A DNA stretch of 64,000 nucleotides from Minisyncoccota bacterium (GTDB lineage: Bacteria; Patescibacteriota; Minisyncoccia; Phycocordibacterales; JABAAK01), in assembly GCA_958295675.1 (NCBI GenBank), contig OY282360.1:261466-325465 (forward strand), written 5' to 3'. Each line of letters opens with the position of its first letter. Within the stretch, counting starts at the first letter, position 1. The translations under genes and the position numbers were made by a program. The notes beneath the pieces are model-generated. The model had not been told where the DNA came from. It worked only from the letters and a program-made list of their open reading frames with translations, and made no database searches. Below are positions 7,291 through 54,610 of this stretch, piece by piece.

Positions 7291-7400
7291 CAAGGAACAT
7301 GCAATCGGAAAGAAAAGTTATTAACACGGCGTGAAGTGAGCAAAGGCGGATTAAAGTATACTAAAATTATTAATCTATATAAAATAGATGAGTACTTGTT

Positions 7401-16400: not shown

Positions 16401-17774
16401 TATACCGAAGGAGACGAGATTACCGTCGCCACTGAAGCGGACAACAACAAACGGTTTTGTTTTAAGTCGGAAGACGGAGCAGGGAATAGCAGTTACGGTA
16501 TCTCCGCCGTCCTGAACATAGACACCACTGCCCCCGTGCTCACCCCGATCAGAACGGGCACCGGCAGCACCGCGACCTACATAGTCACTGCCACGGATGT
16601 CTCACCGCCCCTCACCGGAAAAACAAGAGATAATATCGCCTCGGGAAGCTGCACCGACACCCTCTACACCTTCCTCACCAGTTACTTTTGGTCGGACTAC
16701 ACCCCCGGAACGAATGTTGGCACCGCAGACGACACCAACGGCAGGTGTGTCATCATCACGGATGCGGCAGGCAACAGCAAAGCCCAGCATCTCTCGGACA
16801 GCGACAACACGATTGAGAGCGACTTCACCCTGGACATCACCGGCAACGACACCGCCAACTATCTGGATGCCATTGTCCACTACTATTACGCGCAAAACCC
16901 GAGCGATGAGTCAGCGGGCGGTGCGGTCATGGCGAATTTCATCAATGCAAACGACTCACCGGCGAAGACAGGGACCCCGATCACCACGGCAACTATCTAC
17001 ACAACGATGCAGGATTCCGCCACGACGCGTGATTTCACCGGCAACGGCACGGCAAACTATCTGGATGCCATTGTTCACTACTACTACGCGCAGAACCCGC
17101 TCGATCAGTCAGCGGGCGGCGCAGTTATGGCGAACTTTATCAACGCGAACGACTCACCGGCGAAGACAGGGGTTCCGACCACCACGGAAGCTATCTACAC
17201 GCTGCTTCAAGGATTAGGGGGGAGATCGGGCGATTCTTCCGATAGAATCGCGGTTTCCACATCCGCCGTTATCCAGGACTTTTCGGATGGCAGTAACCAA
17301 AAACTCTATGAGTTTACCATTGCCGCGGATGATGCAGGTGATGTCTATCTCGGTCAGGTTGCCCTCACATTCACCGGTGCACACAGTAAGCTCGGCACGG
17401 TGAATATTCGTCGCGGAACATTAACCAGTTCGCCTGTGGTTGCTTCAGGATCTCCTGCTTCAGAACCTGTGAAATTCCCGTTCACCAATGTTGAGACCAT
17501 TGATTCCGGTGAATCGGTAACATTCTCAGTAACCGCTCCTGTGTCCGGTGTCGCTGACGACGAATCTATCACGATTGAGCTTGCTGCAGACAGTGAACCG
17601 ACTGCTGCGAATAAAGTTGGTCAGGAATTCACAGATGCGAAAGATGACTTCAACTTTGTCTGGTCGCCGAATTCGTTAGATAACGAAGGTGCGATAAGTA
17701 ACAACGCCGACTGGTTCTCCGGTTGGGCTGTCTTTGACGATGTTGAGGGCTGGACAAGTGACGAGGATAACTAA
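7401..17774 (+). CDS. Giant secreted surface protein G1 (3457 aa): signal peptide, acidic stalk with 2 cadherin-like domains, Ig-like domains, three FG-GAP beta-propeller modules, C-terminal tandem dockerin-like modules plus a unique 186-aa tail
   Basis: Uninterrupted 10.4-kb ORF with signal-like N-terminus 'MYITQNIFWSRATAWCVSIAMLFSVVGPATHAQ'. Cadherin-like units follow the pattern 'LSGLTVSxTNLNEPFDAETTxYTADVAN..VTV..TPTDD...EGENTVTITVTAxDGVTxQTYxLTxTR'. FG-GAP blades repeat as 'FGSAVSLSADGTxLAVGA..DDDG..RGAVYLFQKTNGSWAKTLKISD'. Confidence 0.85.
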   Translation: MYITQNIFWSRATAWCVSIAMLFSVVGPATHAQTQQEPPEQQAEAPPERVSDDDEEEEEPAEQEEEQEEDEEEEVVPTATLSGLTVSETNLNEPFDAETTAYTADVANTIETVTVSATPTDDTATVTYDPTDADTEEEGHQIALTEGENTVTAEDAAATQTYILTVTRAAEEEPVEEESEPEGDDATEPADDTTNEQADDEEEESNEDGEEEGEEENEEQEESEEEEEPVEQEEEEQEETITPPTLNGLTVSDTNLNEPFDAETTTYTVDVANDIENVTVTPTADDTMTVAFTDTTDTDTEEEGHQVALTVGENTVTITVTAQDGVTAQTYILTITRAAEESEHEDEEETEEEQETPEPTVEPAPEQSQPEAQRQQAQLPDDDTSDTQANPNGPLLIALKPSSDSHRHGTITAVTALPGSPTTGTVIRFTASASSLANTVDTDGSTAKTTAAANDMFQYNDTKWVFMGNGATTVGISSDVDGITNDDTPTFVVKSADGNTFGGGRDDEAFIAKHAGACSSVTIPNNSLNGLNRNHAEYIFRSRSGWTEIDSFDMDLDRGGYSAAASFELTSDELTAGKYCFIAFYTDNGRATANTSTGLTVTIDNSITTPSLSISSGTGTATPTVTVTNLENNAKVRLYTSSNCSTGTALGSGDTTVGASTRVNIDLTGRSVGDIFYAKHTDVAGNTACRSGVTNIPGLTLDLTSDTGTDTTDDHTSDTTPEFTVTGSTAYGGSANNEVRLYHKNTACGTLPPVTTIAGLTGWTLYKTTDVSASSVTSTAGITSGTALTTADEHCFLAVYSADGSAITRYGQLDVVIDTTAPTIIPHISPSLPSGTPTKFSHAGDVAVPLDDWEFFGSTVSLSADGTLMAVGASRDDDGGTDSNRGAVYLFQKTNGSWAKTLKISDNGGGEGLLDINLSDYDYFGSAVSFSGDGTVLAVGADGDDDGAVHLFQKTNGSWAKTLKISDNDGGEGLLDINLGDNDNFGSAVSLSADGTALAVGAHDDDGRYNNRGAVYLFQKTDGVWAKTLKISDNSGGEGLLNIDLSRSDDFGSAVSFSGDGTVLAVGADGDDEGAVYLFQKTNGSWAKTLKISDNDGGEGLLDINLSIFDNFGTAVSLSADGTALAVGTGDNISSKGAVYLFQKTNGSWAKTLKISDNGGGTELLDINLSDSDSFGSAVSFSGDGTVLAVGADGDDDGNNSDINANRGAVYTFDVSPTSTTSATVTAVDTEDSSTMKYKKVSGTACTATQFASGTGTPYAEKDAITVTSETDNNKRFCFRSEDGVGNIGYGISATIAGIDTTAPTLIAFKIGTGSTATYKVSATDNSPVTGKTKDNIAAGSCTDTTTTDNTWTSYTPGTESVTAHDDNGRCIIVIDAAGNKKAQHLSDSDNSYQTPSAAVTGINLQDGSDTGADNDNITSDTTAPVIEFTATASATTTGRWRKQDGEWSSTTATTNSGTVTTTRTYTLPNLTGGDGVYEVEITQTESGEPANPTLYTFTLDTKAPTVIPFTVAPTPGDINYLGIDDSITASFLFNESMAVSPVLTGKFINDETDIPASGGNHHTITAVRYDATTQTLTLTVRDAGPDVAVGNLKYQITNGAAITDIAGNALGTQTRTMSIDDTAIDTTKPILTSTRVGTSSTATYIVTATDTSPVTGKTKDNVILTNCTDTTTTDNTWTYYTSGEYTGTADNTNGRCVIITDAAGNKKAQHLSDSDNTVTSVPILTLDLTSDTGTDTTDDHTSDTTPEFTVTGSTAYGGSANNEVRLYHKNTACGTLPTDITTITALTGWTLYKTTATSATSSTTTTGITSQTALTTTDDHCFLAIYSTDGSAITRYGQLDVVIDITAPTVIPHISPSLPSGTPTKFSRAGDVAVQLDSGDEFGSAVSLSADGTLMAVGASHDDGTDSNRGAVYLFQKTNGSWAKTLKISDNDGSEGLLDINLSNGDNFGSAVSLSADGTILAVGADGDDDGAVYLFQKTNGSWAKTLKISDNGGGEGLLDIDLSAGIFDNNFGSAVSLSADGTALAVGADGDNNNDGAVYLFQKSGNTWAKTLKISHTGDVAVPLDDWDFFGSAVSLSADGTTLAVGASRDDDGNNSSINANRGAVYLFQKSGNTWAKTLKISDNGGGTELLDINLSDSDSFGSAVSFSGDGTTLAVGVDGDNEGAVYLFQKTNGSWAKTLKISDNGGGEGLLDIDLSNYDNFGTAVSLSVDGTLVAVGADGDYEGAVYTFDVSPTSTTSATVTAVDTEDSSTMKYKKVSGTACTATQFTGDTGTPYTEGDAITVTSETDNNKRFCFRSEDGAGNIGYGISITPNIDTTAPTLTPTKVGIGNAATYKVSATDVSPPLTGRTKDNVALVDCTDSAVTTTSAGWSDYTPGTDTGTADDTNGRCVIITDAVGNSKAQHLSDSDNTITGVPALTLDLTSDTGDTTDDHTSDTTPAFTVTGLTAYGGSANNEVRLYHKNTACGILPTAITTIAGLTDWTLYKTTDVSAASSTTTTGITSGTALTTTDEHCFLAVYSTDGSAITRHGQLDVVIDTTTPTVIPHIIPSLPSGTPTKFSHTSDVAVTLDDDDRFGSAVAFSADGTLMAVGAYGDDDGGTDNNSNRGAVYLFQKTNSSWAKTLKISDNNNGSGLLDIDLDNSDRFGTTTSLSADGTMLAVGAYGDDDGGTNRGAIYLFQKTGNTWAKTLKISDNAGGSGLLDINLSDYDRFGRAVSLSADGTMLVAGSYGDDDGGTTSDRNRGAVYLFQKTGDTWAKTLKISDNGGGEGLLDINLDNNDRFGVAASLSADGTMLAVGAYYDDDGHASVDRGAVYLFQKTNGTWTKTLKISDNDDSEGLLDINLDNNDEFGNAISFSADGTMLAVGAHDDDDGGQHNNRGAVYLFQKTGGTWAKTLKISDNDGGKELLDINLRNHDFFGSAVSFSGDGTMLAVGADHNDDGSSNSYERGAVYAFSVSPKLTASATVTAVDTEDSSTMKYMKTTGTSCTSAQFAGGTGTPYTEGDEITVATEADNNKRFCFKSEDGAGNSSYGISAVLNIDTTAPVLTPIRTGTGSTATYIVTATDVSPPLTGKTRDNIASGSCTDTLYTFLTSYFWSDYTPGTNVGTADDTNGRCVIITDAAGNSKAQHLSDSDNTIESDFTLDITGNDTANYLDAIVHYYYAQNPSDESAGGAVMANFINANDSPAKTGTPITTATIYTTMQDSATTRDFTGNGTANYLDAIVHYYYAQNPLDQSAGGAVMANFINANDSPAKTGVPTTTEAIYTLLQGLGGRSGDSSDRIAVSTSAVIQDFSDGSNQKLYEFTIAADDAGDVYLGQVALTFTGAHSKLGTVNIRRGTLTSSPVVASGSPASEPVKFPFTNVETIDSGESVTFSVTAPVSGVADDESITIELAADSEPTAANKVGQEFTDAKDDFNFVWSPNSLDNEGAISNNADWFSGWAVFDDVEGWTSDEDN
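7626..7904 (+). repeat. Cadherin-like beta-sandwich domain 1 of G1 (carries a 5-codon in-frame deletion relative to paralogous units)
   Basis: 'ENTVTAEDAAATQTY' here versus 'ENTVTITVTAEDGVTVQTY' in the other copies. Confidence 0.6.
8127..8411 (+). repeat. Cadherin-like beta-sandwich domain 2 of G1
   Basis: Same about 95-aa unit flanked by poly-Glu/Asp linkers. Confidence 0.6.
9930..11045 (+). repeat. FG-GAP beta-propeller module A of G1 (about 7 blades, near-identical at nt level)
   Basis: Tandem about 180-bp units contain 'ggcgcggtctacctctttcaaaaaacaaatggctcctgggcgaagaccctgaagatctctgacaatg'. Confidence 0.65.
12990..14100 (+). repeat. FG-GAP beta-propeller module B of G1 (about 9 blades, with an internal restart of the propeller-start motif)
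   Basis: The propeller-start motif 'AGDVAV(P/Q)LD..FGSAVSLSADG' appears at 13000 and again at 13570 ('HTGDVAVPLDDWDFFGS'). Confidence 0.6.
15090..16265 (+). repeat. FG-GAP beta-propeller module C of G1
   Basis: Blades 'RFGxAxSLSADGTMLAVGAYGDDDGG..RGAVYLFQKTG.TWAKTLKISDN', more diverged than modules A and B. Confidence 0.6.
16821..17211 (+). other. C-terminal tandem dockerin-like calcium-loop modules (2 x about 62 aa) of G1
   Basis: 'DITGNDTANYLDAIVHYYYAQNP..AGGAVMANFINANDSP' occurs twice. 'D-x-T-G-N-G-T-x-N-Y-L-D-x-x-x-x-x-Y' aligns to the dockerin F-hand loop/helix 'D-V-N-G-D-G-x-V-N-x-x-D-x-x-x-L-x-x-Y'. The module is conserved at the C-terminus of G1-G6. Confidence 0.5.
17212..17771 (+). 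other. Unique 186-aa C-terminal extension of G1 ending '...NADWFSGWAVFDDVEGWTSDEDN'
   Basis: Present only in G1. A 60-bp relic of its end survives untranslated downstream of G2 (22330-22427). Confidence 0.5.
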
Positions 17775-17868: not shown

Positions 17869-18009
17869 ATGGAATATAGTATTTCTCAGATAATAGTACT
17901 TGGTGTGATAATAGGCGGAGCAATATGCGTGAGATTGCTTATCCAACGGATAAGAAGAAAAATGATAAAAAAATTACTTACGAACTTGAGAAAGAATATA
18001 CTGAGATAA
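17869..18009 (+). CDS. Small conserved single-TM protein (46 aa), copy 1
   Basis: 'MEYSISQIIVLGVIIGGAICVRLLIQRIRRKMIKKLLTNLRKNILR' has one TM helix and a basic tail. A paralog at 22501-22644 differs by conservative substitutions and a 1-codon in-frame indel. Confidence 0.4.
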   Translation: MEYSISQIIVLGVIIGGAICVRLLIQRIRRKMIKKLLTNLRKNILR

Positions 18010-18094: not shown

Positions 18095-18181
18095 CAGGGA
18101 GGTAGGATTATCCACCTCCAATACATGATGTGATAATATAACAAGTATACTACCCATGTGTACAGCACAGGTATAGGTAGT
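18095..18181 (+). promoter_or_regulatory. Conserved promoter/5'-leader cassette upstream of G2 (degenerate copy)
   Basis: 'taggattatccacc...gataatataacaagtatactacccatgtgtacagcacaggtataggtagt' then ATG. Homologous to the cassettes at 23125, 34478, 37381 and 43331. Confidence 0.5.
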
Positions 18182-21100
18182 ATGTATATAACTAAAAAAT
18201 TCTTTCTCACACGATGTATCGCACTGTGGGTGATACTCGCGCTGATGGTAACACTCATTCCGACCGCTCCGTATGCGGTCGGTCAGGAAGAAAAGAAACC
18301 TGATGGGGGGGGTACGACAGATACACCGCAGGAAACACCGAATCAACAGCAGGCAGAAGCGCCACCGGAGCGTGTGTCGGACGATGATGAAGAGCAGGAA
18401 GAACCTGCAGAGCAAGAGGAGAGTGAGGAAGAGGAAACACCGGCACCAACGCTCAGCAATCTCACGGTCTCGGACACCAATCTTAACGAGCCGTTTGACG
18501 CGGAGACAACTGCCTACACCGCCGATGTGGCGCATACTAGTGAAACAGTAACAATCAGCGCGACACCGACGGACGACACCATGACCGTCACCTACGATCC
18601 GACCGATGCCGACACGGAAGAAGAAGGACAGCAGGTCAATCTAACAGAAGGAGAGAACACCGTAACGATAACAGTAACAGCAGAGGACGGGGTAACGGTG
18701 CAGACCTACACCCTAACGATCACCAGAGCGGCGGAAGAGCCGAGTGAACCCGAGGATAGTGAAGAAGAGGAAGAAGAATCTGTAGGGGGAGAAAATGAGG
18801 AAACAGAGGAAGAGGAAGAAACACCGGAACCGACTGCAGAACCGGCACCGGAACAACCGCAGCCACAAGCACAACAGCAACAGCAGGTACAACTTCCTGA
18901 TGATGACGACACCGCGGGCACGCAGGCATACACAGCACCGACAGGCGCGCTGACCCTTGACCTGAAAACCGACAGTGACAGCGGATCAAGTACCACGGAC
19001 GACATCACCAAAAACACCTCACTCACCTTCACTGTTTCAAGCGGTGCGAATTTTGGCGGTACGGATAGTAGCAATGCCAGTACAGTGGGTATGATTTATA
19101 AAAATGAAGGTTGCAGCAGCGGGACAGCGATACCGGCAGATGGCACGAATTGGGGACATTCGAGCAACAATAATGGTTTCCATAATGATTTGCCCGTTGC
19201 ATGGAGAAACAGCGCGACGAAAGAATCTACAGGTACCCCGGCAACAAGTTTTGATGTAACATTTGATATAGCAGGGAAGCCGTGGGGATCTTCCAGTCTC
19301 ACAGTGCCAACGGTTACGGACGGCGTGAAATGCTTCATCGCCGCGTTTTTTGCCGGCGATACCGCAACTGTGTCCAGCAGTAACACCAGTGCCGGTCTTG
19401 AGGTAACCATAGACACAACGGCGACTACCCCGTCACTCAGCATATCCTCCGGTGCCGGCTCCGAGGCACCAGTCGTCGCCATTACCAACCTTGAGAGTAA
19501 CGGCAAGGTGCGTCTCTACACCGATAGCGACTGCAGCGCAAGCAACGCGCTCGGCAGCGACGACACCTCGGTGGGAGCGTCAACGACCACCGCGAGTATC
19601 ACCCTGAGCGGACGGTCTGCCAGTGATACTTTTTACGCGAAGCACACCGATGTCGCGGGCAACACGGCCTGCAGCAGCAGCGGGGTATCAAATGTTTCCG
19701 TGCTGACACTTGATCTCACTTCCGACACCGGCGACACCACCGACGACCGCACCTCCGACACCACACCCGCGTTCACGGTGACGGGAGAAACCGCGTATGG
19801 CGGCTCCGCGAGCAACGAAGTACGCCTCTACCACAAGAACACCGCCTGCGGCATCCTCCCGACCGACATCACGACCACCACCGGTCTCACTGACTGGACA
19901 CTTTACAAAACAACCGATGTCTCCGCCTCCCCCGCCGTTACCACCACAACTGGCATCACCTCCGACACCGCGCTGACCACCACCGACGAACACTGCTTCC
20001 TCGCTGTCTACTCATCCGACGGCTCGGCGATAACCCGATACGGACAGTTGGATGTCGTTATAGACACCACCGCACCGACAATCATCCCCCGTGTCGCGCC
20101 GTCCTATCCGTCAGGCACACCGACCAAGTTCTCGCACGCCGGTGATGTCGCGGTGACATTGGATAATCGTGACTTCTTCGGCTCCGCCACCGCTCTCTCA
20201 GCGGACGGCACGCTGATGGCGGTGGGGGTACTGAGCGACGATGACGGCGGCAGCGACAGAGGCGCGGTGCACCTCTTTGAAAAAACAGATGCCACATGGA
20301 CGAAAACCCTGAAAATCTCCGACAACAACGGCGGCACAGAACTTTTGGATATCAATTTGGATAACAGTGACGCTTTCGGCACCACCGTCTCCCTCTCAGC
20401 GGACGGCACCCTGCTGGCGGTGGGGGCAGATAGTGACGACGACGGCGGCGGCGGCAACAAAGGCGCGGTCTATCTCTTTGAAAAAACAAGCACCGGGTGG
20501 GCGAAGACCTTGAAGATCTCTGACAATGCCAACACTGCAGGACTCTTGGATATCAATTTGGATACCGGTGACCGGTTCGGCAGCGCCGCTGCTCTCTCGG
20601 CAGACGGCACCGCACTGGCAGTGGGGGCGATCTACGACGATGACGGCGGCAGAAATGCCGACCGAGGCGCGGTCTATCTCTTTGAAAAAACAAGCACCGG
20701 GTGGGCGAAAACCCTAAAAATCTCTGACAACGACGGCGGCACAGAACTTTTGGATATCAATTTGGATGATGATGACGACTTTGGCATATCGGTTGCGCTC
20801 TCCGCGGACGGCACCGCACTTGCCGTCGGTGCGAAGTCAGACGATGACGGTGAAGCCGTCATAATCAGAAGAGGAAGAGGAAGAACAATATATGATACCG
20901 ATACCGACCGAGGCGCGGTCTATCTCTTTGAGAAATCAGACGGTACCTGGGCGAAGACCCTGAAAATCTCCGACAACGACGGCGGGAGTGCGGGACTCTT
21001 GGATATCAATTTGGACGTCGGTGATCTCTTCGGCAACGCCGTCTCCCTTGTGGCGGATGGCACCCTGCTGGCGGTGGGGGCACAGGACGACGATGATAAC

Positions 21101-22270
21101 GGCAGAGGCAAAGGCGCGGTCTACCTCTTTCAAAAATCAGACACCGCATGGGCGAAGACCCTGAAAATCTCCGACAACAACGGCGGAAGTGCGGGACTCT
21201 TGGACATCAATTTGACCACTATTGACCGGTTCGGCTCCGGCGTCTCCCTTGCCGCGGACGGTACCGCACTGGCGGTGGGTGCGAGAAATGATAGCAGTAC
21301 CAAAGGCGCGGTCTACGCGTTCAGCGTATCTCCGAAACTGACCGTTTCCGCGACTGTCACCGCCGTTGACACTGAGGACAGCAGCACGATGAAATATATG
21401 AAAACCACCGGCACCGCCTGCACAGCGACACAGTTCGCGGGCGGCACGGGAACACCGTATACCGAAGGAGACGAGATTACCGTCGCCACTGAAGCGGACA
21501 ACAACAAACACTTCTGCTTCAAGTCGGAAGACGGAGCAGGGAATAGCAGTTACGGTATCTCCGCCGTCCTGAACATAGACACCACCGCCCCCGTGCTCAC
21601 CCCGATTAGAACGGGTACCGACAACACCGCCACCTACATAGTCACCGCCGCCGACAACTCACCCCTCACCGGTGTAACAAAAGACAATGTCGCCTTGGCC
21701 GACTGTACCGACACGACCACGACCGACAACACCTGGACGAGTTACACCCCCGGAGACGACATCGGCACCGCGGACGACACCAACGGCAGGTGTGTCATCA
21801 TCACGGATGCGGCAGGCAACAGCAAAGCCCAGCACCTCTTAGACAGCGACAACACGATTCGAGCTGACTTCACCCTGGACATCACCGGCAACGGCACGGC
21901 AAACTACTTAGATGCCATTGTCCACTACTACTATGCGCAGAACCCGATCGATCAGTCAGCGGGCGGTGCCGTCATGGCGAATTTCATCAATGCGAACGAC
22001 TCGCCGACGAACACAGAGAACCAGACCGACACGGCAGCTATCTACACAACGATGCAGGATTCCGCCACAACGCGTGACTTCACCGGCAACGGCACCACCA
22101 ACTACTTGGACGCCATTGTCCACTACTACTATGCGCAGAACCCGATCGATCAGTCAGCGGGCGGCGCGGTCATGGCGAATTTCATCAATGCGAACGACTC
22201 ACCGACGAACACAGAAAACCAGACCAACACGGCGGCTATCTACACGCTGCTTCAGAATTTTGATCTGTGA
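18182..22270 (+). CDS. Giant secreted surface protein G2 (about 1362 aa): signal peptide, acidic stalk with 1 cadherin-like domain, Ig-like domains, one FG-GAP propeller module, C-terminal tandem dockerin-like modules
   Basis: I place the start at the second Met 'MYITKKFFLTRCIALWVILALMVTLIPTAPYAVGQ', which matches the other paralogs (the ORF track starts at 18158). The internal module at 19690-21550 is homologous to the G1 modules. Confidence 0.8.
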   Translation: MYITKKFFLTRCIALWVILALMVTLIPTAPYAVGQEEKKPDGGGTTDTPQETPNQQQAEAPPERVSDDDEEQEEPAEQEESEEEETPAPTLSNLTVSDTNLNEPFDAETTAYTADVAHTSETVTISATPTDDTMTVTYDPTDADTEEEGQQVNLTEGENTVTITVTAEDGVTVQTYTLTITRAAEEPSEPEDSEEEEEESVGGENEETEEEEETPEPTAEPAPEQPQPQAQQQQQVQLPDDDDTAGTQAYTAPTGALTLDLKTDSDSGSSTTDDITKNTSLTFTVSSGANFGGTDSSNASTVGMIYKNEGCSSGTAIPADGTNWGHSSNNNGFHNDLPVAWRNSATKESTGTPATSFDVTFDIAGKPWGSSSLTVPTVTDGVKCFIAAFFAGDTATVSSSNTSAGLEVTIDTTATTPSLSISSGAGSEAPVVAITNLESNGKVRLYTDSDCSASNALGSDDTSVGASTTTASITLSGRSASDTFYAKHTDVAGNTACSSSGVSNVSVLTLDLTSDTGDTTDDRTSDTTPAFTVTGETAYGGSASNEVRLYHKNTACGILPTDITTTTGLTDWTLYKTTDVSASPAVTTTTGITSDTALTTTDEHCFLAVYSSDGSAITRYGQLDVVIDTTAPTIIPRVAPSYPSGTPTKFSHAGDVAVTLDNRDFFGSATALSADGTLMAVGVLSDDDGGSDRGAVHLFEKTDATWTKTLKISDNNGGTELLDINLDNSDAFGTTVSLSADGTLLAVGADSDDDGGGGNKGAVYLFEKTSTGWAKTLKISDNANTAGLLDINLDTGDRFGSAAALSADGTALAVGAIYDDDGGRNADRGAVYLFEKTSTGWAKTLKISDNDGGTELLDINLDDDDDFGISVALSADGTALAVGAKSDDDGEAVIIRRGRGRTIYDTDTDRGAVYLFEKSDGTWAKTLKISDNDGGSAGLLDINLDVGDLFGNAVSLVADGTLLAVGAQDDDDNGRGKGAVYLFQKSDTAWAKTLKISDNNGGSAGLLDINLTTIDRFGSGVSLAADGTALAVGARNDSSTKGAVYAFSVSPKLTVSATVTAVDTEDSSTMKYMKTTGTACTATQFAGGTGTPYTEGDEITVATEADNNKHFCFKSEDGAGNSSYGISAVLNIDTTAPVLTPIRTGTDNTATYIVTAADNSPLTGVTKDNVALADCTDTTTTDNTWTSYTPGDDIGTADDTNGRCVIITDAAGNSKAQHLLDSDNTIRADFTLDITGNGTANYLDAIVHYYYAQNPIDQSAGGAVMANFINANDSPTNTENQTDTAAIYTTMQDSATTRDFTGNGTTNYLDAIVHYYYAQNPIDQSAGGAVMANFINANDSPTNTENQTNTAAIYTLLQNFDL
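20141..21330 (+). repeat. FG-GAP beta-propeller module of G2
   Basis: Blades 'FGxxxxLSADGTxLAVGAxxDDDG..(R/K)GAVYLFEKTSTGWAKTLKISDN'. Confidence 0.6.
21865..22267 (+). other. C-terminal tandem dockerin-like modules of G2
   Basis: 'DFTLDITGNGTANYLDAIVHYYYAQNPIDQSAGGAVMANFINANDSPTNTENQT' occurs twice and ends 'LLQNFDL*'. Confidence 0.5.
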
Positions 22271-22500
22271 GGAGATGCGAAACGGATGCACCGCGCCGCG
22301 GTAAATCAGAAGAACATTGAGCGGCTGTTGCAGAATGCTGATTGGGCTGTCTTTAACGACGATGATGTTGAGGACCGGACAAGCGACGAGGATAACCAAA
22401 GCGCAGTGAGTCCTGTCGGTGCCGAGGATCGTTGACATATACACATGATGTGTTGTTTGTACATACACACATGTTATTCTATTACCATACAATACATGAC

Positions 22501-22644
22501 ATGGAAGAGTATAGTATTTATCAGATGATAGTAGTTGGTGTGATAATAGGCGGGGCAATGGGTGTGGGCTTGCTTATCCGACGGATGAGAGCAAAAATGA
22601 TAAAAAAATTACTTACGCACTTGAGAAAGAATATACTGAGATAA
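22501..22644 (+). CDS. Small conserved single-TM protein (47 aa), copy 2
   Basis: 'MEEYSIYQMIVVGVIIGGAMGVGLLIRRMRAKMIKKLLTHLRKNILR'. The C-terminal half is nearly identical at nt level to copy 1. Confidence 0.4.
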   Translation: MEEYSIYQMIVVGVIIGGAMGVGLLIRRMRAKMIKKLLTHLRKNILR

Positions 22645-22837: not shown

Positions 22838-23110
22838 GTGACGGTGAGAAAAAAATATACAGATGTCGCGCGACAGCAAAAACATTTGAGCAACATTCGC
22901 GATCGTGTGCAGAATGCCAATGAGACATTTTTTCCGGATAAAACAGATAGACAGTACGACAGTATAGTACTGATTGATGATATGGTCGGCTCCGGTGCTT
23001 CGTTCAATCAGGTCGCGAAAAAACTTGTCAATCGGAACAGTGCGAAAGAAGTGTACGGCATCAGTATCGTCGGTGATCAAAATGGATTCAGTGCGGTGAA
23101 AAAAATATAG
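22838..23110 (+). pseudogene. ComF-family / type I phosphoribosyltransferase C-terminal fragment (90 codons, GTG-initiated, likely gene remnant)
   Basis: 'SIVLIDDMVGSGASFNQVAKKL...AKEVYGISIVG' matches the PRTase motif and ComFC C-terminus. It lacks the N-terminal zinc-finger/PRT half, and there is no ATG start. Confidence 0.45.
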
Positions 23111-23124
23111 CACCGTCTCGGGCA

Positions 23125-23200
23125 GTAAGATTGTCCACCTGTAATAAATAATGCGATAATATAACAAGTACACTGCCTATGTGTACAGCACAGGTATAGT
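23125..23200 (+). promoter_or_regulatory. Conserved promoter/5'-leader cassette upstream of G3: TTGTCC(23131-36)-N18-GATAAT(23155-60), leader hairpin GTACAC-tgcctat-GTGTAC (23168-23186), SD AGGT (23192-95)
   Basis: 'taagattgtccacctgtaataaataatgcgataatataacaagtacactgcctatgtgtacagcacaggtatagt' then ATG. Present in five copies. Confidence 0.5.
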
Positions 23201-26200
23201 ATGTATATACATAAAAAAATATTTCTCACACGATGTATCGCACTCTGGGTAATACTCGCGCTGATGGTAACACTCGTCCCAACCGCTCCGTATGCCGTCG
23301 GTCAGGAAGCAAAGAAACCTGATGGGGGGGGTACGACAGATACACCGCAGGAAGCACCGGAGCAACAGGCGGAAGCACCGCCGGAGCGTGTGTCGGACGG
23401 TGATGAAGAGCAGGAGGAGAGTGAGGAAGAGGAAACACCGGCACCAACACTCATCGGTCTCACGGTCTCAGGAACCGATCTTAACGAAACATTTGATTCT
23501 GCCGTAACAACCTACACCGCCGATGTGGCACATGACAGCGAAACAGTAACAATCAGCGCGACACCGATGGACGATACGGCAACTGTGGCATTTACTGATA
23601 CAACGGATGCCGACACGGAAGAAGACGGACACCAAGTCAATCTCACGGAAGGGGAAAATACGGTAACAATAACAGTAACAGCGCAGGACGGAGTAACTAC
23701 ACAAACTTACACCCTGACAGTGACCAGAGCTGCTGAAGAAGAACCTACAGAGGAAGAAGAACAAGAAGAGGCGGATGAAAACGAAGAGCAAGAGGATGAA
23801 GAAGAGACAGGAGAAGAAACACCGGCACCAACACTCAGCGGTCTCACGGTTTCGGATACCGATCTCAATGAACCGTTTGATGCGGAGACAACTGCATATA
23901 CCGCCGATGTGGCGCATGACAGCGAAACCGTCACAATCAGCGCGACATCAACAGACAACACCGCGACCGTCACCTACGATCCGACCGATGCCGACACGGA
24001 AGAAGAGGGACAGCAGGTCAATCTCACGGAAGGGGAAAACACGGTAACGATAACAGTGACGGCGGAAGACACAACACAAACCTATACACTCACCATCACC
24101 AGAGCTGCGGAAGAAGAACAAGAGGATGAAGAAGAGACAGGAGAAGAAACACCGGAGCCGACTACAGAACCGGCACTGGAACAACCACAAGCACAGCAGC
24201 AACAGCAGGTACAACTTCCCGACGATGACGATACCTCGGATACGCAGGGTGCTCCATCAGGTCCGTTGATACTGGTTTTAAAAACATCGTCCGATTCACA
24301 CCGCCACGGCACCATCACGACGGTAACGGCACTCCCCGGATCGCCGACAAGCGGCGCGGTGATTCGATTCACCGAGTCGGCGTCATCGCTGGCGAACACG
24401 GTAGACACTGACGGCAGCACCGCGAAAACAACCGCGGCGGCAAACGATATGTTCCGGTACAACGGCACCAAATGGGTCTTTATGGGAAACGGCGTCACCA
24501 CGGCGGGCATCAGTTCGGATGTTGACGGGATTACGAGCGACGACACGCCGACTTTTAATGTCAGTAATTCGGCGACATTCAATTCGAACGATGGGAGTTT
24601 AGAAGAAGCGTCGTTCCTGATGAAAAAAGATCAGGGGTGCGCGGGGCTGTCAAAACCGTCAGGGGATTATATTCCTATTACCCGTACGCAGAGGTGGTCG
24701 CATATATTCACAGAAAGATCTATGACTAATTCATATGACGCGCTCATTGGGACGCAGAATGCCGGGATGAAATGTCTCAGTGTGGGATGGGTAACACACG
24801 GGCAGAACACCAGTAACTGGAGTGAATTACTTGAGGTGACGATAGACACCGGGGCGACCACACCGACAGTCGCTATCACCTCCGGTGCCGGCACAGGCAA
24901 CCCGACGGTGCGGGTGAGCGGTCTTGAATCGGGTGGTGCGGTGGCGCAGCTGTTTAGTGACTCGGGGTGCGGCACGGCAATCAGTGGTGTGTCATCACGC
25001 ACCGGCGCGTCTGAGACCTCCAAAGACCTGACCACAACCACAATCGTCGCCGCGGGTGCGAGCATCTACGCGAAGCAGACGGATGTGGCAGGCAATGGTT
25101 CCGCGTGCAGCGACGCGGTGCTCAACGCGGTGCCATCCGCCGCGGTGAGCGGTATTGATTTAAAAACAGGCAGCGACACCGGCACACAGGACGATAGCAT
25201 CACCAGCGATACCACAGCACCGGCACTAGGGTTCACACAGGTGTCAGGCGCGACCATTACCGTCCGCTACCGCAAGGTGGGAGGGTCGTGGACAACGATA
25301 CAATCAGGAAGTATCACGGCAACAGGAGCTGCGGGTACGATAACCTTACCGAATCTCACGGCGGGTGACGGGACATACGAGGTGGAGATAACGCAGGATG
25401 ATGACGGCAACGGCGCGAGGAGTCCGACAGCGGCGACCTACATATTCACGCTGGATACCACCGCGCCGACCGTTATCGTGAGCAGCACGCCGGCACTGCC
25501 GTCAGGCACTCCGACGAAGTTCTCGCAAACCGGCGGGGTCACAATCACATTGGAGAACGAGGACAAATTCGGCACCGCTACCTCTCTCTCGGCGGACGGC
25601 ATGCTGATGGCGGTGGGGGTACCAAATGACGATGACAAGGCAGGCGACAGTAGCGGCAACGACAGGGGCGCGGTGTATCTCTTTCAAAAATCAGGTGCCA
25701 CCTGGCAGAAGATACACAAGTTCTCCGACCACACCGGCAGCGGAGTGACCGGAACCCGGTTCACCACGGCAGTGACGGATGTTAATCTGAGCAACAGTGA
25801 CCATTTCGGCTCCGGTGTCTCGCTCTCCGCGGACGGCACGCTGCTGGCGGTTGGTGCGAGAGGTGATGGCACGGGTGCGGTCTACCTTTTTAAAAAATCA
25901 AGCACCACATGGCAAAAAATACACAAGTTCTCAAATCACACTACAAGCACGGAACCGGCGGTTCGTTTCACGGCGGCGATAACGGATGTTGATATAGGGG
26001 GTAGTGGCTGGTTTGGCACCGCAGTCTCCCTCTCGGCGAGCGGTGAAGTGCTGGCGGTTGGCGCGCGCGATGACGGCTCCTCTTCTAGAGGTGCGGTCTA
26101 CCTCTTTGAAAAAACAGACGGCAGCTGGTCGCAATCACTGAAAATATCCGATAACAATGGCGGGGCGGGATTGTTGGATATCACCCTGGATGCCCGTGAC

Positions 26201-32200: not shown

Positions 32201-33574
32201 ACAGACGGCCTCATTGATATCAATACTATTCAAAAACTCAACGCCATCCGGTATGACCTCAACGGAGACGGTGTCCCGAAGGCAGGACAGGAAAGCAACT
32301 ACACCACAGTGTTCCCGAACGCGGCGACGCATCTCGGCTGTCCGGGACCCTGTACCGGCTATGAACTGACCGCGGATTTAGATTTCGATACCGACGATGC
32401 GGACATCAGAACCGACGACACCTACCACAACAGCGGCGCGGGGTGGGAACCGATCGGTGCGGACAGTGCCGGCAACCGCTTCACTGCCACATTCAACGGC
32501 AACGGCTTTGTCATTGACAACCTTTTGATCAATCGGAGCAGTACCGGCACCCAGGCATTATTCGCCGCGACAGAAACCGGCGCGAAGATCACAGCGGTCG
32601 GCATGCGCGATGTCAATGTCGCCGGTACCAACGGCTCGGCTGCTTTGGTCGGCGCGAGCAAGAGTGGTACCGTCATCAGCGCGAGTTTCTCCACCGGATC
32701 AATCACCGGCGCATGGGCTGCCGGCGGGTTAGTGGGATACAACGAAGGCACGGTAGAGGCGAGTTACAGCTCCGCCACCGTATCCGGCACGACCGCCGTC
32801 GGCGGTTTGGTCGGCAACAGCCAGAACAGCGGCGCGAGTATTAAAAACAGTTACGCCTATGGTGCGGTGACCCAGAGCGGCACAACCCATCTCGGCGGCT
32901 TGGTCGGACACAACCACACCAACGCGACGATAACAGATAGTTACTGGGACACTGAGGTCACCACGGCCGCAGGCGTCGGTACCACCGGCGCGGTCGGTAA
33001 GACCACAACACAGCTCCAGACACCCGTCGACTATACCGGTATCTACGCGACATGGGATGACAGTGATATAGGGGGCACCAGTGCCAATGACGCGCCATGG
33101 GACTTCGGCAGGAGTAGCCAATATCCGGCACTGACATTCGGAGGACACCGAACGGCGACGCAACGGCCTGCTTTCACCCTGGACATCACCGGCAACGGCA
33201 CGGCAAACTATCTGGATGCCATTGTCCACTACTATTACGCGCAGAACCCGATCGATCAGTCAGCGGGCGGTGCGGTCATGGCGAACTTCATCAATGCGAA
33301 CGACTCGCCGACGAACACAGAGAACCAGACCGACACGGCGGCTATCTACACAACGATGCAGGATTCCGCCACAACGCGTGACTTCACCGGCAACGGTACC
33401 ACCAATTATCTGGACGCCATTGTCCACTACTATTACGCGCAAAACCCGATCGATCAGTCAGCGGGCGGCGCGGTCATGGCGAACTTTATCAATGCGAACG
33501 ACTCACCGACGAACACAGAGAACCAGACCAACACGGCGACTATCTACGCGCTGCTTCAAAACCTGGATCTGTAA
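23201..33574 (+). CDS. Giant secreted surface protein G3 (3457 aa): signal peptide, 2 cadherin-like domains, Ig-like domains, one FG-GAP propeller, two FN3 + Ca-loop + GLUG beta-helix modules, an internal canonical cadherin-like domain, a third FN3, C-terminal tandem dockerin-like modules
   Basis: FN3: 'GVTLNWTDPSDSVVTGYQWQQC...GLTANTGYTMKLRA'. Ca-loop: 'DTDGDGLIDINTIQKLNAIRYDLNGDG'. GLUG-like repeats: 'GGLVGHNEGTVEASYSAATVSG..VGGLVGNSQNSGASIKNSYAYGAVTQSG..LGGLVGH'. Internal cadherin-like domain: 'LTALTVSVGTLSPSFTESLTAYTMEVSPTTASLTVTP...TYTIAVTR'. Confidence 0.85.
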   Translation: MYIHKKIFLTRCIALWVILALMVTLVPTAPYAVGQEAKKPDGGGTTDTPQEAPEQQAEAPPERVSDGDEEQEESEEEETPAPTLIGLTVSGTDLNETFDSAVTTYTADVAHDSETVTISATPMDDTATVAFTDTTDADTEEDGHQVNLTEGENTVTITVTAQDGVTTQTYTLTVTRAAEEEPTEEEEQEEADENEEQEDEEETGEETPAPTLSGLTVSDTDLNEPFDAETTAYTADVAHDSETVTISATSTDNTATVTYDPTDADTEEEGQQVNLTEGENTVTITVTAEDTTQTYTLTITRAAEEEQEDEEETGEETPEPTTEPALEQPQAQQQQQVQLPDDDDTSDTQGAPSGPLILVLKTSSDSHRHGTITTVTALPGSPTSGAVIRFTESASSLANTVDTDGSTAKTTAAANDMFRYNGTKWVFMGNGVTTAGISSDVDGITSDDTPTFNVSNSATFNSNDGSLEEASFLMKKDQGCAGLSKPSGDYIPITRTQRWSHIFTERSMTNSYDALIGTQNAGMKCLSVGWVTHGQNTSNWSELLEVTIDTGATTPTVAITSGAGTGNPTVRVSGLESGGAVAQLFSDSGCGTAISGVSSRTGASETSKDLTTTTIVAAGASIYAKQTDVAGNGSACSDAVLNAVPSAAVSGIDLKTGSDTGTQDDSITSDTTAPALGFTQVSGATITVRYRKVGGSWTTIQSGSITATGAAGTITLPNLTAGDGTYEVEITQDDDGNGARSPTAATYIFTLDTTAPTVIVSSTPALPSGTPTKFSQTGGVTITLENEDKFGTATSLSADGMLMAVGVPNDDDKAGDSSGNDRGAVYLFQKSGATWQKIHKFSDHTGSGVTGTRFTTAVTDVNLSNSDHFGSGVSLSADGTLLAVGARGDGTGAVYLFKKSSTTWQKIHKFSNHTTSTEPAVRFTAAITDVDIGGSGWFGTAVSLSASGEVLAVGARDDGSSSRGAVYLFEKTDGSWSQSLKISDNNGGAGLLDITLDARDYFGSDVSLSADGALLAVGADGDDDGSSSRGAVYLFEKASGSWTKTLKISQNGGGNSGLLHINLDGSDYFGSAVSLAGTALAASAYSDDDGGTDRGAIYLFQKTDGSWTKTLKISDNGGSGTGLLDINLDNDDRFGSAVALSADGTVLAAGAPDDDDGGSNSGAVYLYGVSPPTIASASTVTAFDSEGSSAMKWVKISDTTCTATQFTGDAGTVYTEGSAIVVTDTADNGKRFCFRVQDAAGNIGFGISPAVTVNPPVAPPTSAFTTLKIKSDAANDTGSSQDDNITKNTSPTFVVGHTTEFGAPTGQTKAGIQIGWKSGTCPAAVPTQTTAQSIYSAGTGWNYYGTGLLSVGAKQTSVEVGRLAGQSVLSAGTICILAYYNPNTINTGSTVVTASYTMGEITIDTTKPVLTVFRIWHGNANTVTFRINATDDALPITGRTKDNVTSANCTDSTDTTGGGWTDYTPGTETGTAHDTNGRCVIITDATGNSKKQHLSDFTAFTPIPKTPVGLIDTWTATGVTLNWTDPSDSVVTGYQWQQCDGTGANCGSWTNISGSNATTVSYAFTGLTANTGYTMKLRATYATGNSIAVSAVGMTGTVYDTDGDGLIDINTIQKLNAIRYDLNGDGAPKAGQESNYTAAFPNAATHLGCPGPCTGYELTADLDLNDETAGIRTDDTYYNSGAGWEPIGADSANNRFTAIFNGRGFVIDNLFINRGSTGTQALFAATETGAKITAVGLRDVSVTGANGSAALVGASKTGTVINTSFSTGTVAGAWGTGGLVGHNEGTVEASYSAATVSGTISVGGLVGNSQNSGASIKNSYAYGAVTQSGSQHLGGLVGHSHTNATITDSYWDTTVTAAAGTTTTGATGKTTTQLQTPVDYTGIYATWDDSDVGGTSANDTPWNFGESGQYPALSFGGHRTATQWSAEANLTALTVSVGTLSPSFTESLTAYTMEVSPTTASLTVTPTLHTATSSVTVNGNTVTSGSPSAAIALTAGAVTDITIVVTATSGSTNTYTIAVTRLKDYDDDDDGLIDIRTHQQLNAVRWDLDGNGTPASGQGTNYTTAFPSASTGMGCKLTDHDNDANTADKPTCTGYELRADIDLDTDEDGKTWTGTEASPSGDSGDAYYNSGSGWAPIGHQPSTAFSGTFKGNGYTIKNLFINRTATYTGLFGFVGRPSKSHTRIEGVGLKNAYVKGGGSTGALVGRNEKPVTASWVTGAVRGANGVGGLIGLNTSTVTASYSLASVTATNTVGGLIGQQENGGIVASYAGGKVSTAGATKGGLVASKSGTAYATNSYYNSDTTTLASSALGTAKTDKALRTPTGYTGIYLNWNVDVGGTNATDDPWSIVAGNYPVLDYGAGASVTTQRNEQPAVPAKPTIALQSPTTTPHTDKTPTFRVTTLTTGATITLHTGSDCSGTALTTTPTTVTVASSDTTKDIDSTFVVGSYTIFAKQTKDNIPVCSSGISFEIKGKPAAPGNIAIAPGDTEVTVSWDNPNNPTITSYEYKRKVGTGNYDANWTMITGVGASDTSHTFTGLTNGTAYQYKIRAVNAAGNGAESETAAATPVATISAAPASPTLASDSGSITPYTGTGTHRTRDTTPTIAFTAVANAVTTAKYRQGTSGVFSNTGITYVGTGSTTARTATLPTLSTNGTYQVEITQTESGKTAKTVTYSFMLDTVSPTVTPAVSKTGHTQSGGTDYLSIGDTITVTFTFDEDMPATPVLTGKFRNNATDIPASGGNHHTIAPARTSATVQTLKLTVRDAGPDVADGNLKYQLTNGTALTDLAGNALGAQTVTTIANTVIDTTKPTLTAFRVGSGNSATYRVTATDASSVTGRTKDNVATGSCTDNTDTTGGSWTDYTPGADTGTAHDTAGRCVIITDTAGNSKKQHLLDSTVMAVIPTAPTGLTGTWGTAGITLNWTDPSESSITKYQYQQCDSAGVTCGSWTDIPSSGATTVTHPITGLTANTGYSFKLRAVNANGDGTAASITGTTGTIYDTDTDGLIDINTIQKLNAIRYDLNGDGVPKAGQESNYTTVFPNAATHLGCPGPCTGYELTADLDFDTDDADIRTDDTYHNSGAGWEPIGADSAGNRFTATFNGNGFVIDNLLINRSSTGTQALFAATETGAKITAVGMRDVNVAGTNGSAALVGASKSGTVISASFSTGSITGAWAAGGLVGYNEGTVEASYSSATVSGTTAVGGLVGNSQNSGASIKNSYAYGAVTQSGTTHLGGLVGHNHTNATITDSYWDTEVTTAAGVGTTGAVGKTTTQLQTPVDYTGIYATWDDSDIGGTSANDAPWDFGRSSQYPALTFGGHRTATQRPAFTLDITGNGTANYLDAIVHYYYAQNPIDQSAGGAVMANFINANDSPTNTENQTDTAAIYTTMQDSATTRDFTGNGTTNYLDAIVHYYYAQNPIDQSAGGAVMANFINANDSPTNTENQTNTATIYALLQNLDL
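25555..26715 (+). repeat. FG-GAP beta-propeller of G3 (two blade flavours)
   Basis: Blades 'FGxxVSLSADG(T/A)LLAVGA..D.....GAVYLF(Q/E)K..G(S/T)W(Q/S)K..K(F/I)SD'. Confidence 0.6.
27700..27965 (+). other. Fibronectin type III domain (G3, first of three)
   Basis: FN3 consensus W..P......Y.......(L/T)...GLT.NT.Y.(F/M)KLRA. Confidence 0.6.
28230..28800 (+). other. GLUG-type beta-helix repeat region (G3, first of two), preceded by a DxDGDG Ca-binding loop at 27990-28100
   Basis: Repeated 'GGLVG' spaced about 20-25 aa apart, with 'NSYAxG.V' cores. Confidence 0.55.
33172..33571 (+). other. C-terminal tandem dockerin-like modules of G3
   Basis: Two about 62-aa repeats ending 'LLQNLDL*'. Confidence 0.5.
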
Positions 33575-33674
33575 GGAGATGCGAAACGGATGCACCGCGG
33601 TACGCGGAGTGTATTGCTGCATGGAATCATGGAATAAGGAATGTAGATAGGTACGATATCGGAAGCATGCTATA

Positions 33675-33697: not shown

Positions 33698-33904
33698 ATG
33701 AAAAACAAACTGCACACACTTATAAACGGTCTGAAAAATAAATTTCGCGGTCATAAGAATAACCGACCGGCAGCATCCGATGAAACACCAACGAATAACG
33801 GCAGCACACTCAGTCAGGAGGAAGCAAACAGAAGGATTGATAAAGCCGCGAAAGTAACCGTTGAACGATACGGTCATATCATTGAACGCCTCTCAAAAGA
33901 GTAG
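33698..33904 (+). CDS. Candidate antitoxin / small upstream partner of the Doc toxin (68 aa)
   Basis: Its stop TAG is separated by 1 nt from the Doc ATG (TAGtATG translational coupling). No family motif recognised. Confidence 0.3.
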   Translation: MKNKLHTLINGLKNKFRGHKNNRPAASDETPTNNGSTLSQEEANRRIDKAAKVTVERYGHIIERLSKE

Positions 33905-33905
33905 T

Positions 33906-34343
33906 ATGGAGTTTCTCACAGAAGAACACTTATTGCGCCTGTACGACACAGAGCGGAAAACAGGGTATCTCACCGGACTCTTCGGTCCGTTTCTGCCGAC
34001 TGATCGGGAAGTATGGGCGGAAAAGATGGCGGCAGTGCAGGGTATCGTGCAAAACAGAAGTACCATGCTCGGCGACGACCTGCACGGTACCATTGCGCGG
34101 GCGATGTTCCTGATTATCAAGGGACACAAGCTGGTTGACGGCAATAAACGCTCCTCCATTCTCTGCATGATCGGTATGTACTATCTGAACGGATATGAGA
34201 TGACAATTGATCCGGAAGCACTGTACAGGAAAGTAAAAGAAATAGCGGCACTTGATTCGCAGACCTGCGATGATGATACGATAGTTGCCGATGTGAAAAA
34301 GTTTCTGCAGGACGGCACGTACAGCGGTGCGGATACAAGGTAG
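33906..34343 (+). CDS. doc: Doc (death-on-curing) family toxin, Fic-fold
   Basis: 'GHKLVDGNKRSSIL' matches the Doc motif HxFx(D/N)GNKR. It is about 145 aa and is coupled to the upstream small ORF. I start it at 'MEFLTEEH' rather than the overlapping ORF-track start at 33861. Confidence 0.7.
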   Translation: MEFLTEEHLLRLYDTERKTGYLTGLFGPFLPTDREVWAEKMAAVQGIVQNRSTMLGDDLHGTIARAMFLIIKGHKLVDGNKRSSILCMIGMYYLNGYEMTIDPEALYRKVKEIAALDSQTCDDDTIVADVKKFLQDGTYSGADTR

Positions 34344-34477
34344 GGAACAAATAAAGTGCGCAGCGCGCGCTGTGGCATCAAAAAAATATTTTTGAAATTT
34401 TTGAAATTATTATCATAATCGGGTTATAGACCCGTGGTAGCAGGTATATCGAAATCATATATAAAAATACTACTAGT

Positions 34478-34555
34478 AAAATTGTCCACCTGTAATAAAT
34501 AATGCGATAATATAACAAGTACACTGTCTATGTGTACAGCACAAGTATAGTTAGT
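34478..34555 (+). promoter_or_regulatory. Conserved promoter/5'-leader cassette upstream of G4
   Basis: 'aaaattgtccacctgtaataaataatgcgataatataacaagtacactgtctatgtgtacagcacaagtatagttagt' then ATG. Confidence 0.5.
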
Positions 34556-37360: not shown

Positions 37361-37380
37361 TAACGGAAAAGACGGTCAGG

Positions 37381-54583: not shown

Positions 54584-54610
54584 GGAGAAAAAAGAGGATA
54601 TATTCCATAG

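Follow-up and report, generated by a model that had tools for sequence, protein, structure and literature searches.

Clustered surface-protein paralogs of mycoplasmas carry a highly conserved 5' untranslated region (UTR) and signal-peptide region in front of divergent, repeat-rich bodies (vpma/vsp genes; PMC2268961). We analyzed a 64-kb stretch of contig OY282360.1 from an uncultured bacterium of the candidate phyla radiation (CPR, or Patescibacteria), here called the window, and found that it encodes eight large secreted proteins, the genes for which (G1 to G8) all lie on the + strand. Five of these (G2 to G6) begin with copies of one block that spans a promoter-like zone, a leader with a palindrome, and a signal-peptide coding region. 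As in the vpma locus of M. agalactiae and the vsp locus of M. bovis, the 5' UTR and the signal-peptide coding region are conserved among clustered paralogs. Unlike those loci, where one promoter per locus is active, every copy here has a promoter-like zone; moreover, all genes face the same way, no Xer-type recombinase domain was found among the open reading frames (ORFs) scanned, the signal peptide is of the signal peptidase (SPase) I type and lacks a lipobox, the proteins are giant (934–3724 aa), and the host is a CPR bacterium. The locus is not a member of the vpma/vsp system but a new example of the same general design in a CPR bacterium. Members of the CPR are believed to live in attachment to host cells.

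Stem-loops at the 5' ends of known mRNAs block RppH and 5'-end-dependent RNases (PMC3997798), and a preliminary description of the block had interpreted the palindrome as a functional 5'-terminal hairpin with compensatory stem variation, acting as an mRNA stabilizer or regulator. As a whole, that description was partly confirmed. With about even confidence, we conclude that a tandem gene family encoding giant modular surface proteins shares this block as its 5' cassette for expression and secretion, and that the palindrome is best read at the level of DNA. The promoter zone would consist of three overlapping -10-like boxes (TGCGATAAT, TAATATAAC, and AAGTAYACT) behind a weak -35. The leader would be short (~20–35 nt) and without a Shine-Dalgarno (SD) sequence, leading to an A/U-rich start (ATGTATATA), a Sec signal peptide of the SPase I type and, in four copies, a run of eight G residues (the G8 tract, as distinct from gene G8). 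The cassette would have spread by duplication, and gene conversion together with purifying selection on promoter and leader may have kept the copies similar. Within the palindrome, the left arm and first loop base (AGTAYACT) would be the -10-type box of the lineage (TAYACT), with the C/T site of the stem as its hexamer position 3 and the invariant first T of the loop as its -7 T. The variable part of the loop, five bases long, would then form the discriminator, a sequence-tolerant stretch from the box to the transcription start, and the right arm would be part of a conserved segment of the start or leader (TGTGTACAGCACAGGTATAG). Both the box in use and the position of the transcription start are deduced from the sequence.

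Five homologous cassettes

An alignment of the five copies showed that the common homology begins ~77–83 nt before the ATG and extends to about codon 50. The G3 cassette (23124–23350; family D13), which includes the boundary, promoter zone, leader, signal peptide, and G8 tract, has counterparts at G2 (18100–18331), G4 (34476–34705), G5 (37399–37626), and G6 (43328–43558, the most diverged of the five); all are on the + strand, and the upstream ends are approximate. The start codons of these genes are at 18182 (G2), 23201 (G3), 34556 (G4), 37477 (G5), and 43409 (G6), and those of the other paralogs are at 7401 (G1), 56127 (G7), and 60555 (G8). The repeat is far beyond chance and reflects homology, confirming the repeated block that had been reported upstream of G2 to G6. 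Its interpretation as a duplicated promoter and secretion cassette is also reasonable: the hexamers are conserved, and the 18-nt length of the spacer between them is kept while its sequence drifts, both in G2 and in a second-strain orthologue of the G3 leader (L009, ENA ERZ27241687). L009 is the sole added independent sequence, as the G2 cassette of second-strain contig L008 is identical to that of the window, leader included. The 758-bp contig of L009 ends in a Nextera adapter (CTGTCTCTTATACACATCT; 716–758), and its last ~40 bases are an artefact.

Conservation differed among the parts of the block. Across the five copies, variable columns numbered 1/6 in the -35, 5/18 in the spacer (all changes in G2, length constant), 0/6 in GATAAT, 1/7 in the next 7 nt, 1/12 in the stems of the palindrome, 5/7 in its loop, 3/14 plus indels in the post-stem leader, and 16/36 at third codon positions of the signal peptide. 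The noncoding core outside the loop was less variable than the adjacent third-codon positions (11/63 versus 16/36 sites, p=0.005), as were the stems (p=0.035), whereas the loop did not differ from third-codon positions (p=0.24) and did differ from the stem (p=0.0095). This pattern suggests constraint on the promoter and leader but not on the central part of the loop. The T at either end of the loop (positions 1 and 7) never changes, while each position from 2 to 6 does, which is not what a plain hairpin loop predicts. Compared with G3, L009 differs at three spacer bases and one loop base, with GATAAT and AGTACACT..GTGTAC unchanged.

The leader downstream of the palindrome, AGCACAGGTATAGT (23187–23200, +), is conserved in the alignment, with 3–4-nt indels in G2, G4, and G6, and it holds both the AGGT previously proposed as an SD sequence and a third -10-like box, GGTATAGT. 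The AGGT is present in G2, G3, and G5 but reads AAGT in G4 and AGAT in G6, so it is present in only three of the five copies and is not conserved. A 20-nt block that contains the right arm, TGTGTACAGCACAGGTATAG, is present in the cassettes only. The start codon and Sec-type signal peptide (MYIHKKIFLTRCIALWVILALMVTLVPTAPYAVG|QE) occupy 23201–23308 (+), and the copies are 70–94% identical to G3 over 50 aa. The c-region reads PYAVG|QE, with no L-x-x-C lipobox at the putative cleavage site, which we placed by the A-x-G rule. The signal peptides are near-identical, as had been noted, but they include more variants than the earlier consensus allowed: I7 in G3, M26 and I28 in G4, and C16, L22, and G23 in G6. 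All eight paralogs open with ATGTATATA (MYI; ATGCATATA in gene G8), including those whose signal peptides are otherwise just 29–35% identical, and this common start sequence suggests a nucleotide-level constraint on the start region.

The leader also contains a 6-codon upstream ORF at 23179–23199, with equivalents in G2, G4, G5, and L009 (RTG TGT ACA GCA CAR GTA TAG, encoding MCTAQV and a stop), that ends 1–5 nt before the main ATG. An A/G change in the loop retains an ATG or GTG start, and the G-to-A change by which G4 loses the proposed SD sequence is synonymous in this frame; G6 breaks the pattern. This upstream ORF is probably due to chance. An N-terminal extension of the main protein from the GTG of the right arm was rejected, being in frame in G2 and G4 only.

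Candidate promoter boxes and gene starts in the lineage

In G3, the -35-like hexamer TTGTCC (23131–23136, +) matches the -35 consensus at 4/6 positions, as it does in G4 and G5, and its variant TTATCC, found in G2 (18108–18113) and G6 (43336–43341), matches at 3/6; the spacer is 18 nt in all five. The promoter given in the preliminary description, TTGTCC-N18-GATAAT, was flagged by a promoter scan, with a TG ahead of the -10, in G3, G4, and G5 but does not apply as written to G2 and G6, where the -35 is TTATCC. Behind the -35 we found three -10 candidates. The first is an extended -10 (P1, TGCGATAAT, 23152–23160, +) with a predicted start at 23166–23168; its GATAAT is invariant and its TG was flagged. 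In all five window copies, the -10 hexamer has A as its second and T as its sixth base and is preceded by a TG one base upstream (TGCGATAAT or TGTGATAAT); L009 reads CGCGATAAT, in which the TG has become CG. The second candidate (P1b, TAATATAAC, or TAATATAGC in G5 and G6; 23157–23165, +) overlaps the first and has a predicted start at ~23171–23173, within the left arm; boxes resembling it occur in relatives (GTGGTATAAC, GTAATATAAC). The third (P2, AAGTACACT, or AAGTATACT in G2, G5, and G6; 23166–23174, +) covers the left arm and the first loop base, and its predicted start is at ~23180–23184. Only P1 is predicted to place the complete palindrome in RNA, and only with initiation at 23168 or earlier.

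The best named relatives of the window RNase III belong to Candidatus Kaiserbacteria, Harrisonbacteria, Falkowbacteria, Uhrbacteria, and Paceibacterota, which places the organism in the CPR; the closest relatives overall are on contigs of 0.63–0.83 Mb. Among genes from two relatives (L012 and L013) and from the species of the window (including contig L007), an SD core was found between -20 and -4 for 7/48, so that SD motifs in this lineage are no commoner than the background (12%) would give. A -10 box with the consensus rTGGTATACT (of the (T)GGTATACT type; 29 sites) lies mostly 6–10 nt before the ATG, and its third hexamer position is T at 24 sites and C at 5 (for example, TGGTACACT and TGCTACACT). 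A box so near the ATG, together with scarce SD motifs, implies that mRNAs of this lineage are mostly leaderless or have very short leaders. Leaderless transcription with such a signature has been reported for 'group C' genomes (PMC6028130), in which a TGnTAnAnT-type box likewise stands 6–10 nt before most ATGs and SD sequences are almost absent. The boxes of the cassette match this type; however, the paralogs described here are leadered, with the box 26–44 nt from the ATG and with three overlapping boxes instead of one. The lineage-wide TGGTATACT box near starts and the near absence of SD sequences should be useful for gene-start prediction and promoter annotation.

We scored the three candidates with a 9-mer position weight matrix (PWM) for the lineage box. 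At P2, AAGTATACT scored 8.9, which is within the top 0.04% of window 9-mers, and AAGTACACT scored 6.6. For P1, TGCGATAAT scored 7.0, with 4.9 in G2 and 4.1 in L009, and for P1b, TAATATAAC scored 8.6, with 6.1 in G5 and G6.

The left arm is also part of a motif that extends beyond the five cassettes. The 8-bp palindrome AGTATACT occurs five times in the 64 kb, versus 0.28 expected, and every occurrence is 34–50 nt upstream of a paralog ATG. Three are at 18144, 37443, and 43372; the other two precede G1 (7355–7362, +) and gene G8 (60505–60512, +), which have a second leader type with no right arm. G7 has a counterpart, GGTATACA, at 56079–56086, at the same distance from its ATG. This second leader type, shared by G1 and gene G8, has only three conserved islands: AAAAGTTATYAACACGG, AAGTATACT, and ATTATTA. 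Because AGTATACT is kept at G1 and gene G8 without a right arm, conservation of the left arm does not require a hairpin.

This distribution could also reflect an operator, at which a dimeric DNA-binding regulator would recognize the GTAYAC-type half-sites, located at the start site or shortly past it, and the AGTATACT palindromes of G1 and gene G8 and so co-regulate the surface-protein family. Dimer sites typically consist of conserved arms around a free center, here of 5 nt, AGTATACT is a perfect 8-bp palindrome confined to sites upstream of paralogs, and the hexamers GTAYAC, GTGTAC, and GTATAG follow one another at an exact 7-nt spacing. However, no regulator gene was found among the window ORFs scanned, the half-sites are only 6 bp, the sites of G1 and gene G8 differ in architecture, and the motif is identical to the -10 consensus that the lineage uses in general, so that no dedicated factor is needed. 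We consider an operator improbable. In G3, the three hexamers (GTACAC, GTGTAC, and GTATAG; 23168–23199) have a period of 13 bp, with a variable first spacer and a conserved second one (AGCACAG).

Several points weigh against our reading of the left arm as the -10 box. P2 has no TG at -15/-14, where the two bases are found in 23/29 and 16/29 lineage sites, and no -35, and it scores just 4.9 with a 10-mer PWM. The PWM itself was built from a seeded search of 39 upstream regions drawn from the two relatives and the same species. The best classical architecture (-35, 18-nt spacer, TGn) is that of P1, which lies 40–44 nt from the ATG, like the AGTATACT element in G1, G7, and gene G8 (38–42 nt); because these distances are alike, transcription could in fact start from P1 and include the palindrome. 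Reading the palindrome as DNA also leaves the invariant right arm GTGTAC and the TGTGTACAGCACAGGTATAG block unexplained, and the consensus structure predicted by RNAalifold is the proposed hairpin.

The palindrome as a proposed RNA structure

The palindrome GTACAC-TGCCTAT-GTGTAC, the proposed hairpin, is at 23168–23186 (+) in G3, and the other copies are at 18145–18163, 34519–34537, 37444–37462, and 43373–43391. GTAYAC-N7-GTGTAC occurs exactly five times in the window versus 0.59 expected from shuffles, but the five copies are homologous, so their number is uninformative on structure. The stem forms were as previously given (GTACAC in G3 and G4; GTATAC in G2, G5, and G6). The loops differ, as had also been noted, but the loop of G2 is TACCCAT, a form missing from the earlier list.

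In a worked-out form of the preliminary description's model, transcription would start 6–8 nt past GATAAT, and an overhang of 0–2 nt would be followed by a 6-bp hairpin that shields the 5' end from an RppH-type pyrophosphohydrolase and 5'-end-dependent RNases, thereby stabilizing very long mRNAs. P1 is a classical extended -10 with a -35, and the stem begins at its predicted +1 to +3. The arms are conserved at 11/12 positions, the lone change keeps a G-U pair, the central loop varies, and the helix is the one chosen by RNAalifold. RppH and RNase E need single-stranded 5' ends, and B. subtilis RppH requires at least two unpaired nt (PMC3997798). If P1 is used, the short hairpin would lie 0–2 nt from the predicted 5' end, like the hairpins of E. 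coli ompA and papA and of B. subtilis leaders. In contrast to those, the hairpin here has 6 bp and -4 to -6 kcal/mol, is not dominant in the ensemble, and shows no covariation; its 5' end is only predicted, and the two alternative -10 boxes would exclude it from the RNA, as their starts fall inside or past the left arm.

Folding predictions did not favor the hairpin. When the 60-nt leader was dinucleotide-shuffled, 27% of the resulting sequences contained a perfect 6-bp hairpin with a 3–9-nt loop, and each 161-nt cassette contains 6–8 six-nt inverted repeats versus 3–5 expected. The energy of the isolated hairpin is -6.1 kcal/mol for the C form and -4.2 kcal/mol for the U form, and whole leaders folded no better than shuffles (z -1.3 to +0.4, non-significant). 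In transcripts to +40, the ensemble probability of the hairpin, P(hairpin), was 0.00 in G2 and G5, 0.26–0.33 in G3, 0.26–0.29 in G4, and 0.66–0.73 in G6, and in G2 to G5 the left arm was predicted to pair about as often or more often with the start-codon region (0.40–0.81). The hairpin was thus weak, and in four of the five copies it was not the dominant predicted fold. No Rfam family reached the gathering score anywhere in the window, nor E<=1 within 23100–23330.

The comparison of sequences also did not bear out compensatory variation in the stem. In six distinct leaders (the five paralogs and L009), five of the six stem pairs are invariant and the remaining one varies on one side only, being C-G in three leaders and U-G in three. 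No pair is changed on both sides, and the counts equal those of the shuffle control. Since 6/12 possible stem transitions would preserve pairing, the lone C/U transition had about a 50% chance of doing so, and it may be one inherited event. The covariation check across more sequences that had been suggested thus found no covariation in these six. With the weak energy, the minor share of the ensemble in 4/5 copies, the loss of the P1 TG in L009, and the retention of AGTATACT at G1 and gene G8 without a right arm, we consider a functional 5'-terminal hairpin unlikely. The conserved stem and drifting loop on which it was based fit a reading at the DNA level equally well, and the hairpin adds little unless a mapped 5' end places it in the RNA.

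Two other structural readings of the region were rejected. A helix of the loop and right arm with GCACAGGU had 83% of cells paired, but it had no double changes and several broken pairs and was not above shuffles. A terminator on the minus strand would serve no gene, since none lies on that strand here, and the scan picked out the C-form copies alone; read in this direction, the C-form palindrome is followed by TTGTTATATT, giving a weak terminator-like flag at 23168–23196 and 34519–34547.

The C/U site of the stem is not structurally neutral in silico, as a C-to-U swap in G3 lowered P(hairpin) from 0.26 to 0.01 and raised pairing with the translation initiation region (TIR) from 0.42 to 0.77. 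Such a shift would be consistent with a translational switch between two forms of the leader. In one, the start codon would be hidden by pairing of the 5' GUAUAC with (G)UAUG-UAUAU of the start region; in the competing, open form, the 5' hairpin with GUGUAC would be present; and the C/U base would set the balance for each paralog. The minimum-free-energy folds of G1, G2, G5, and G7 pair GUAUAC with the AUG region, the probability that the left arm pairs with the TIR is 0.73–0.81 in G2 and G5 and 0.40–0.62 in G3 and G4, and the start ATGTATATA or ATGCATATA is found in all eight paralogs despite the diverged signal peptides of G1, G7, and gene G8. However, none of the z-scores against shuffles is significant, A/U-rich UAUA repeats would pair by chance, the pairing in G6 is 0.01, and the switch requires the same unproven upstream transcription start as the hairpin. 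A switch of this kind seems to us quite improbable.

The arms around a 7-bp spacer also resemble the core site of a tyrosine recombinase, with the spacer as the overlap, at which cassettes would be swapped or deleted in the manner of Xer1 in the 5' UTR of the mycoplasma genes. The vpma and vsp genes have recombination sites at -1 to -72 along with their conserved 5' UTR and signal peptide (PMC2268961), and the cassettes described here are mosaic. However, strand exchange depends on a matching overlap, and no two copies have the same spacer, which led us to reject a core site. In addition, each arm has only 6 bp, no copy lacks a promoter-like zone, the placement of all paralogs on one strand excludes inversion switching, and no recombinase was found among the window ORFs scanned. 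We regard a recombinase site as highly improbable; it, the operator, and the switch are all less likely than the 5'-terminal hairpin.

Probable gene conversion and the G8 tract

Parsimony-informative sites conflict along the cassette, variously grouping {G3,G4}, {G5,G6}, {G2,G6}, {G3,G5}, and {G4,G6}, and all four allele combinations were seen between sites only a few nt apart. These incompatible site patterns point to gene conversion, in addition to recurrent mutation of the loop, and we infer that gene conversion is the process that homogenizes the cassettes. The mosaic groupings also support the earlier suggestion that the 5' ends are substrates for gene conversion.

Poly-G tracts in the 5' coding regions of Neisseria and Campylobacter surface genes are known contingency loci. 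The cassettes of G2 to G5 contain a G8 homopolymer at codons 42–44 (GGG GGG GGT; PDGGGT), just past the signal peptide, at 23324–23331 (+) in G3 and at 18305–18312, 34679–34686, and 37600–37607 in G2, G4, and G5. These four are the sole runs of at least seven G or C in the 64 kb, and the tract of G6 is interrupted (GAGGGGGG). As in the poly-G contingency loci, a slip of one base truncates the protein: in silico, a +/-1 slip (to seven or nine G) leads to a stop at codons 59–125. In contrast to those loci, no length variation has been seen so far among the six tracts read (four paralogs, L008, and L009, of which only two are extra sequences), all of which have eight G and are in frame. The G8 tract is a candidate phase-variation switch.

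In a CPR episymbiont, the cassette as a whole might serve as a module for contingency and variation. The giant adhesin paralogs would then be switched independently of one another as their G8 tracts slip, and gene conversion, driven by the common 5' and 3' ends, would reshuffle the adhesin modules. The C/U site of the leader would set the expression level paralog by paralog, either through the choice among overlapping -10 boxes or through the balance of 5' hairpin and start-codon sequestration. We hold this extended proposal to be improbable. To our knowledge, programmed surface variation of this kind has not been described in CPR bacteria; an array of adhesin-like giant genes that combines one expression cassette with a G8 tract prone to slippage and with traces of gene conversion would be a pointer to it. 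The most valuable leads from this locus are side observations, namely the G8 tracts, the -10 box of the lineage, and the motifs AGTATACT and ATGTATATA that recur across the family.

Related sequences and organization of the locus

We searched for further copies of the cassette. Neither an alignment of the signal peptides nor a purF-like protein retrieved a relative from the GTDB representative genomes, a 50-aa N-terminus gave no candidate in the protein database, and a 200-aa N-terminus gave only distant Cadherin-like matches there. A DNA pattern for the signal peptide had 0 matches in the JGI metagenomes; a leader pattern with a free hairpin had six, all unrelated chance matches, and 0 in the viral collection. 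In the complete genomes of the two relatives (L012 and L013), the NusB-NUDIX/rnc neighborhood is shared and the giant-protein array is absent. Exact-protein look-ups retrieved three related-strain contig sets only (L007/L008/L011, L009, and L010).

The paralogs are built of shuffled repeat modules between the conserved 5' end (family D13) and a conserved 3' end (family D1). Cadherin-like, FG-GAP_2, fn3, GLUG, Big_13, and PG_binding_1 domains were found in those scanned against Pfam. A common tandem module of ~66 aa (…TGNGTANYLDAIVHYYYAQNPIDQSAGGAVMANFINANDSP…) closes all of G1 to G6 (16688–17321, 21733–22366, 33173–33670, 36959–37456, 42723–43158, and 54046–54679); it may serve as an anchoring domain, and it matched no Pfam family in those proteins that were scanned. 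The stop codon of G4 and the cassette of G5 (ATG 37477) are 116 nt apart. Because a promoter and terminator scan found no terminator-like site between G4, G5, and G6, the internal cassettes may serve as internal promoters within a longer transcription unit.

A small ORF of ~46 aa with a single hydrophobic helix (MEYSISQIIVLGVIIGGA...KKLLTNLRKNILR) is conserved after G1 and G2, at 17869–18009 and 22507–22644. Promoter-like matches at 17883 and 22518 fall inside these small membrane ORFs (VIIGG codons) and were rejected as copies of the cassette promoter. Past the stop codon of G2, the segment at 22286–22435 is a remnant of an extra C-terminal segment that only G1 retains (NADW..DDVE..TSDEDN).

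In a related strain (L007 10002–16959 / L008 1–13915; ENA ERZ19488997 contig_4), the orthologue of G1 has a different length and consists of three ORFs (1474, 1795, and 124 aa), and the orthologue of G2 consists of two. These splits may be true frameshifts or long-read homopolymer errors. The contig terminates within G2, and assemblies seem to break at repeats. Gene fragments of conflict-system type lie between the paralogs of the window, at 22838–23110, 33861–34343, and 54871–55941. Immediately upstream of the G3 cassette is a 90-aa PRTase-CE piece, a Fic-like fragment is upstream of G4, and a complete Fic/DOC gene follows G6.

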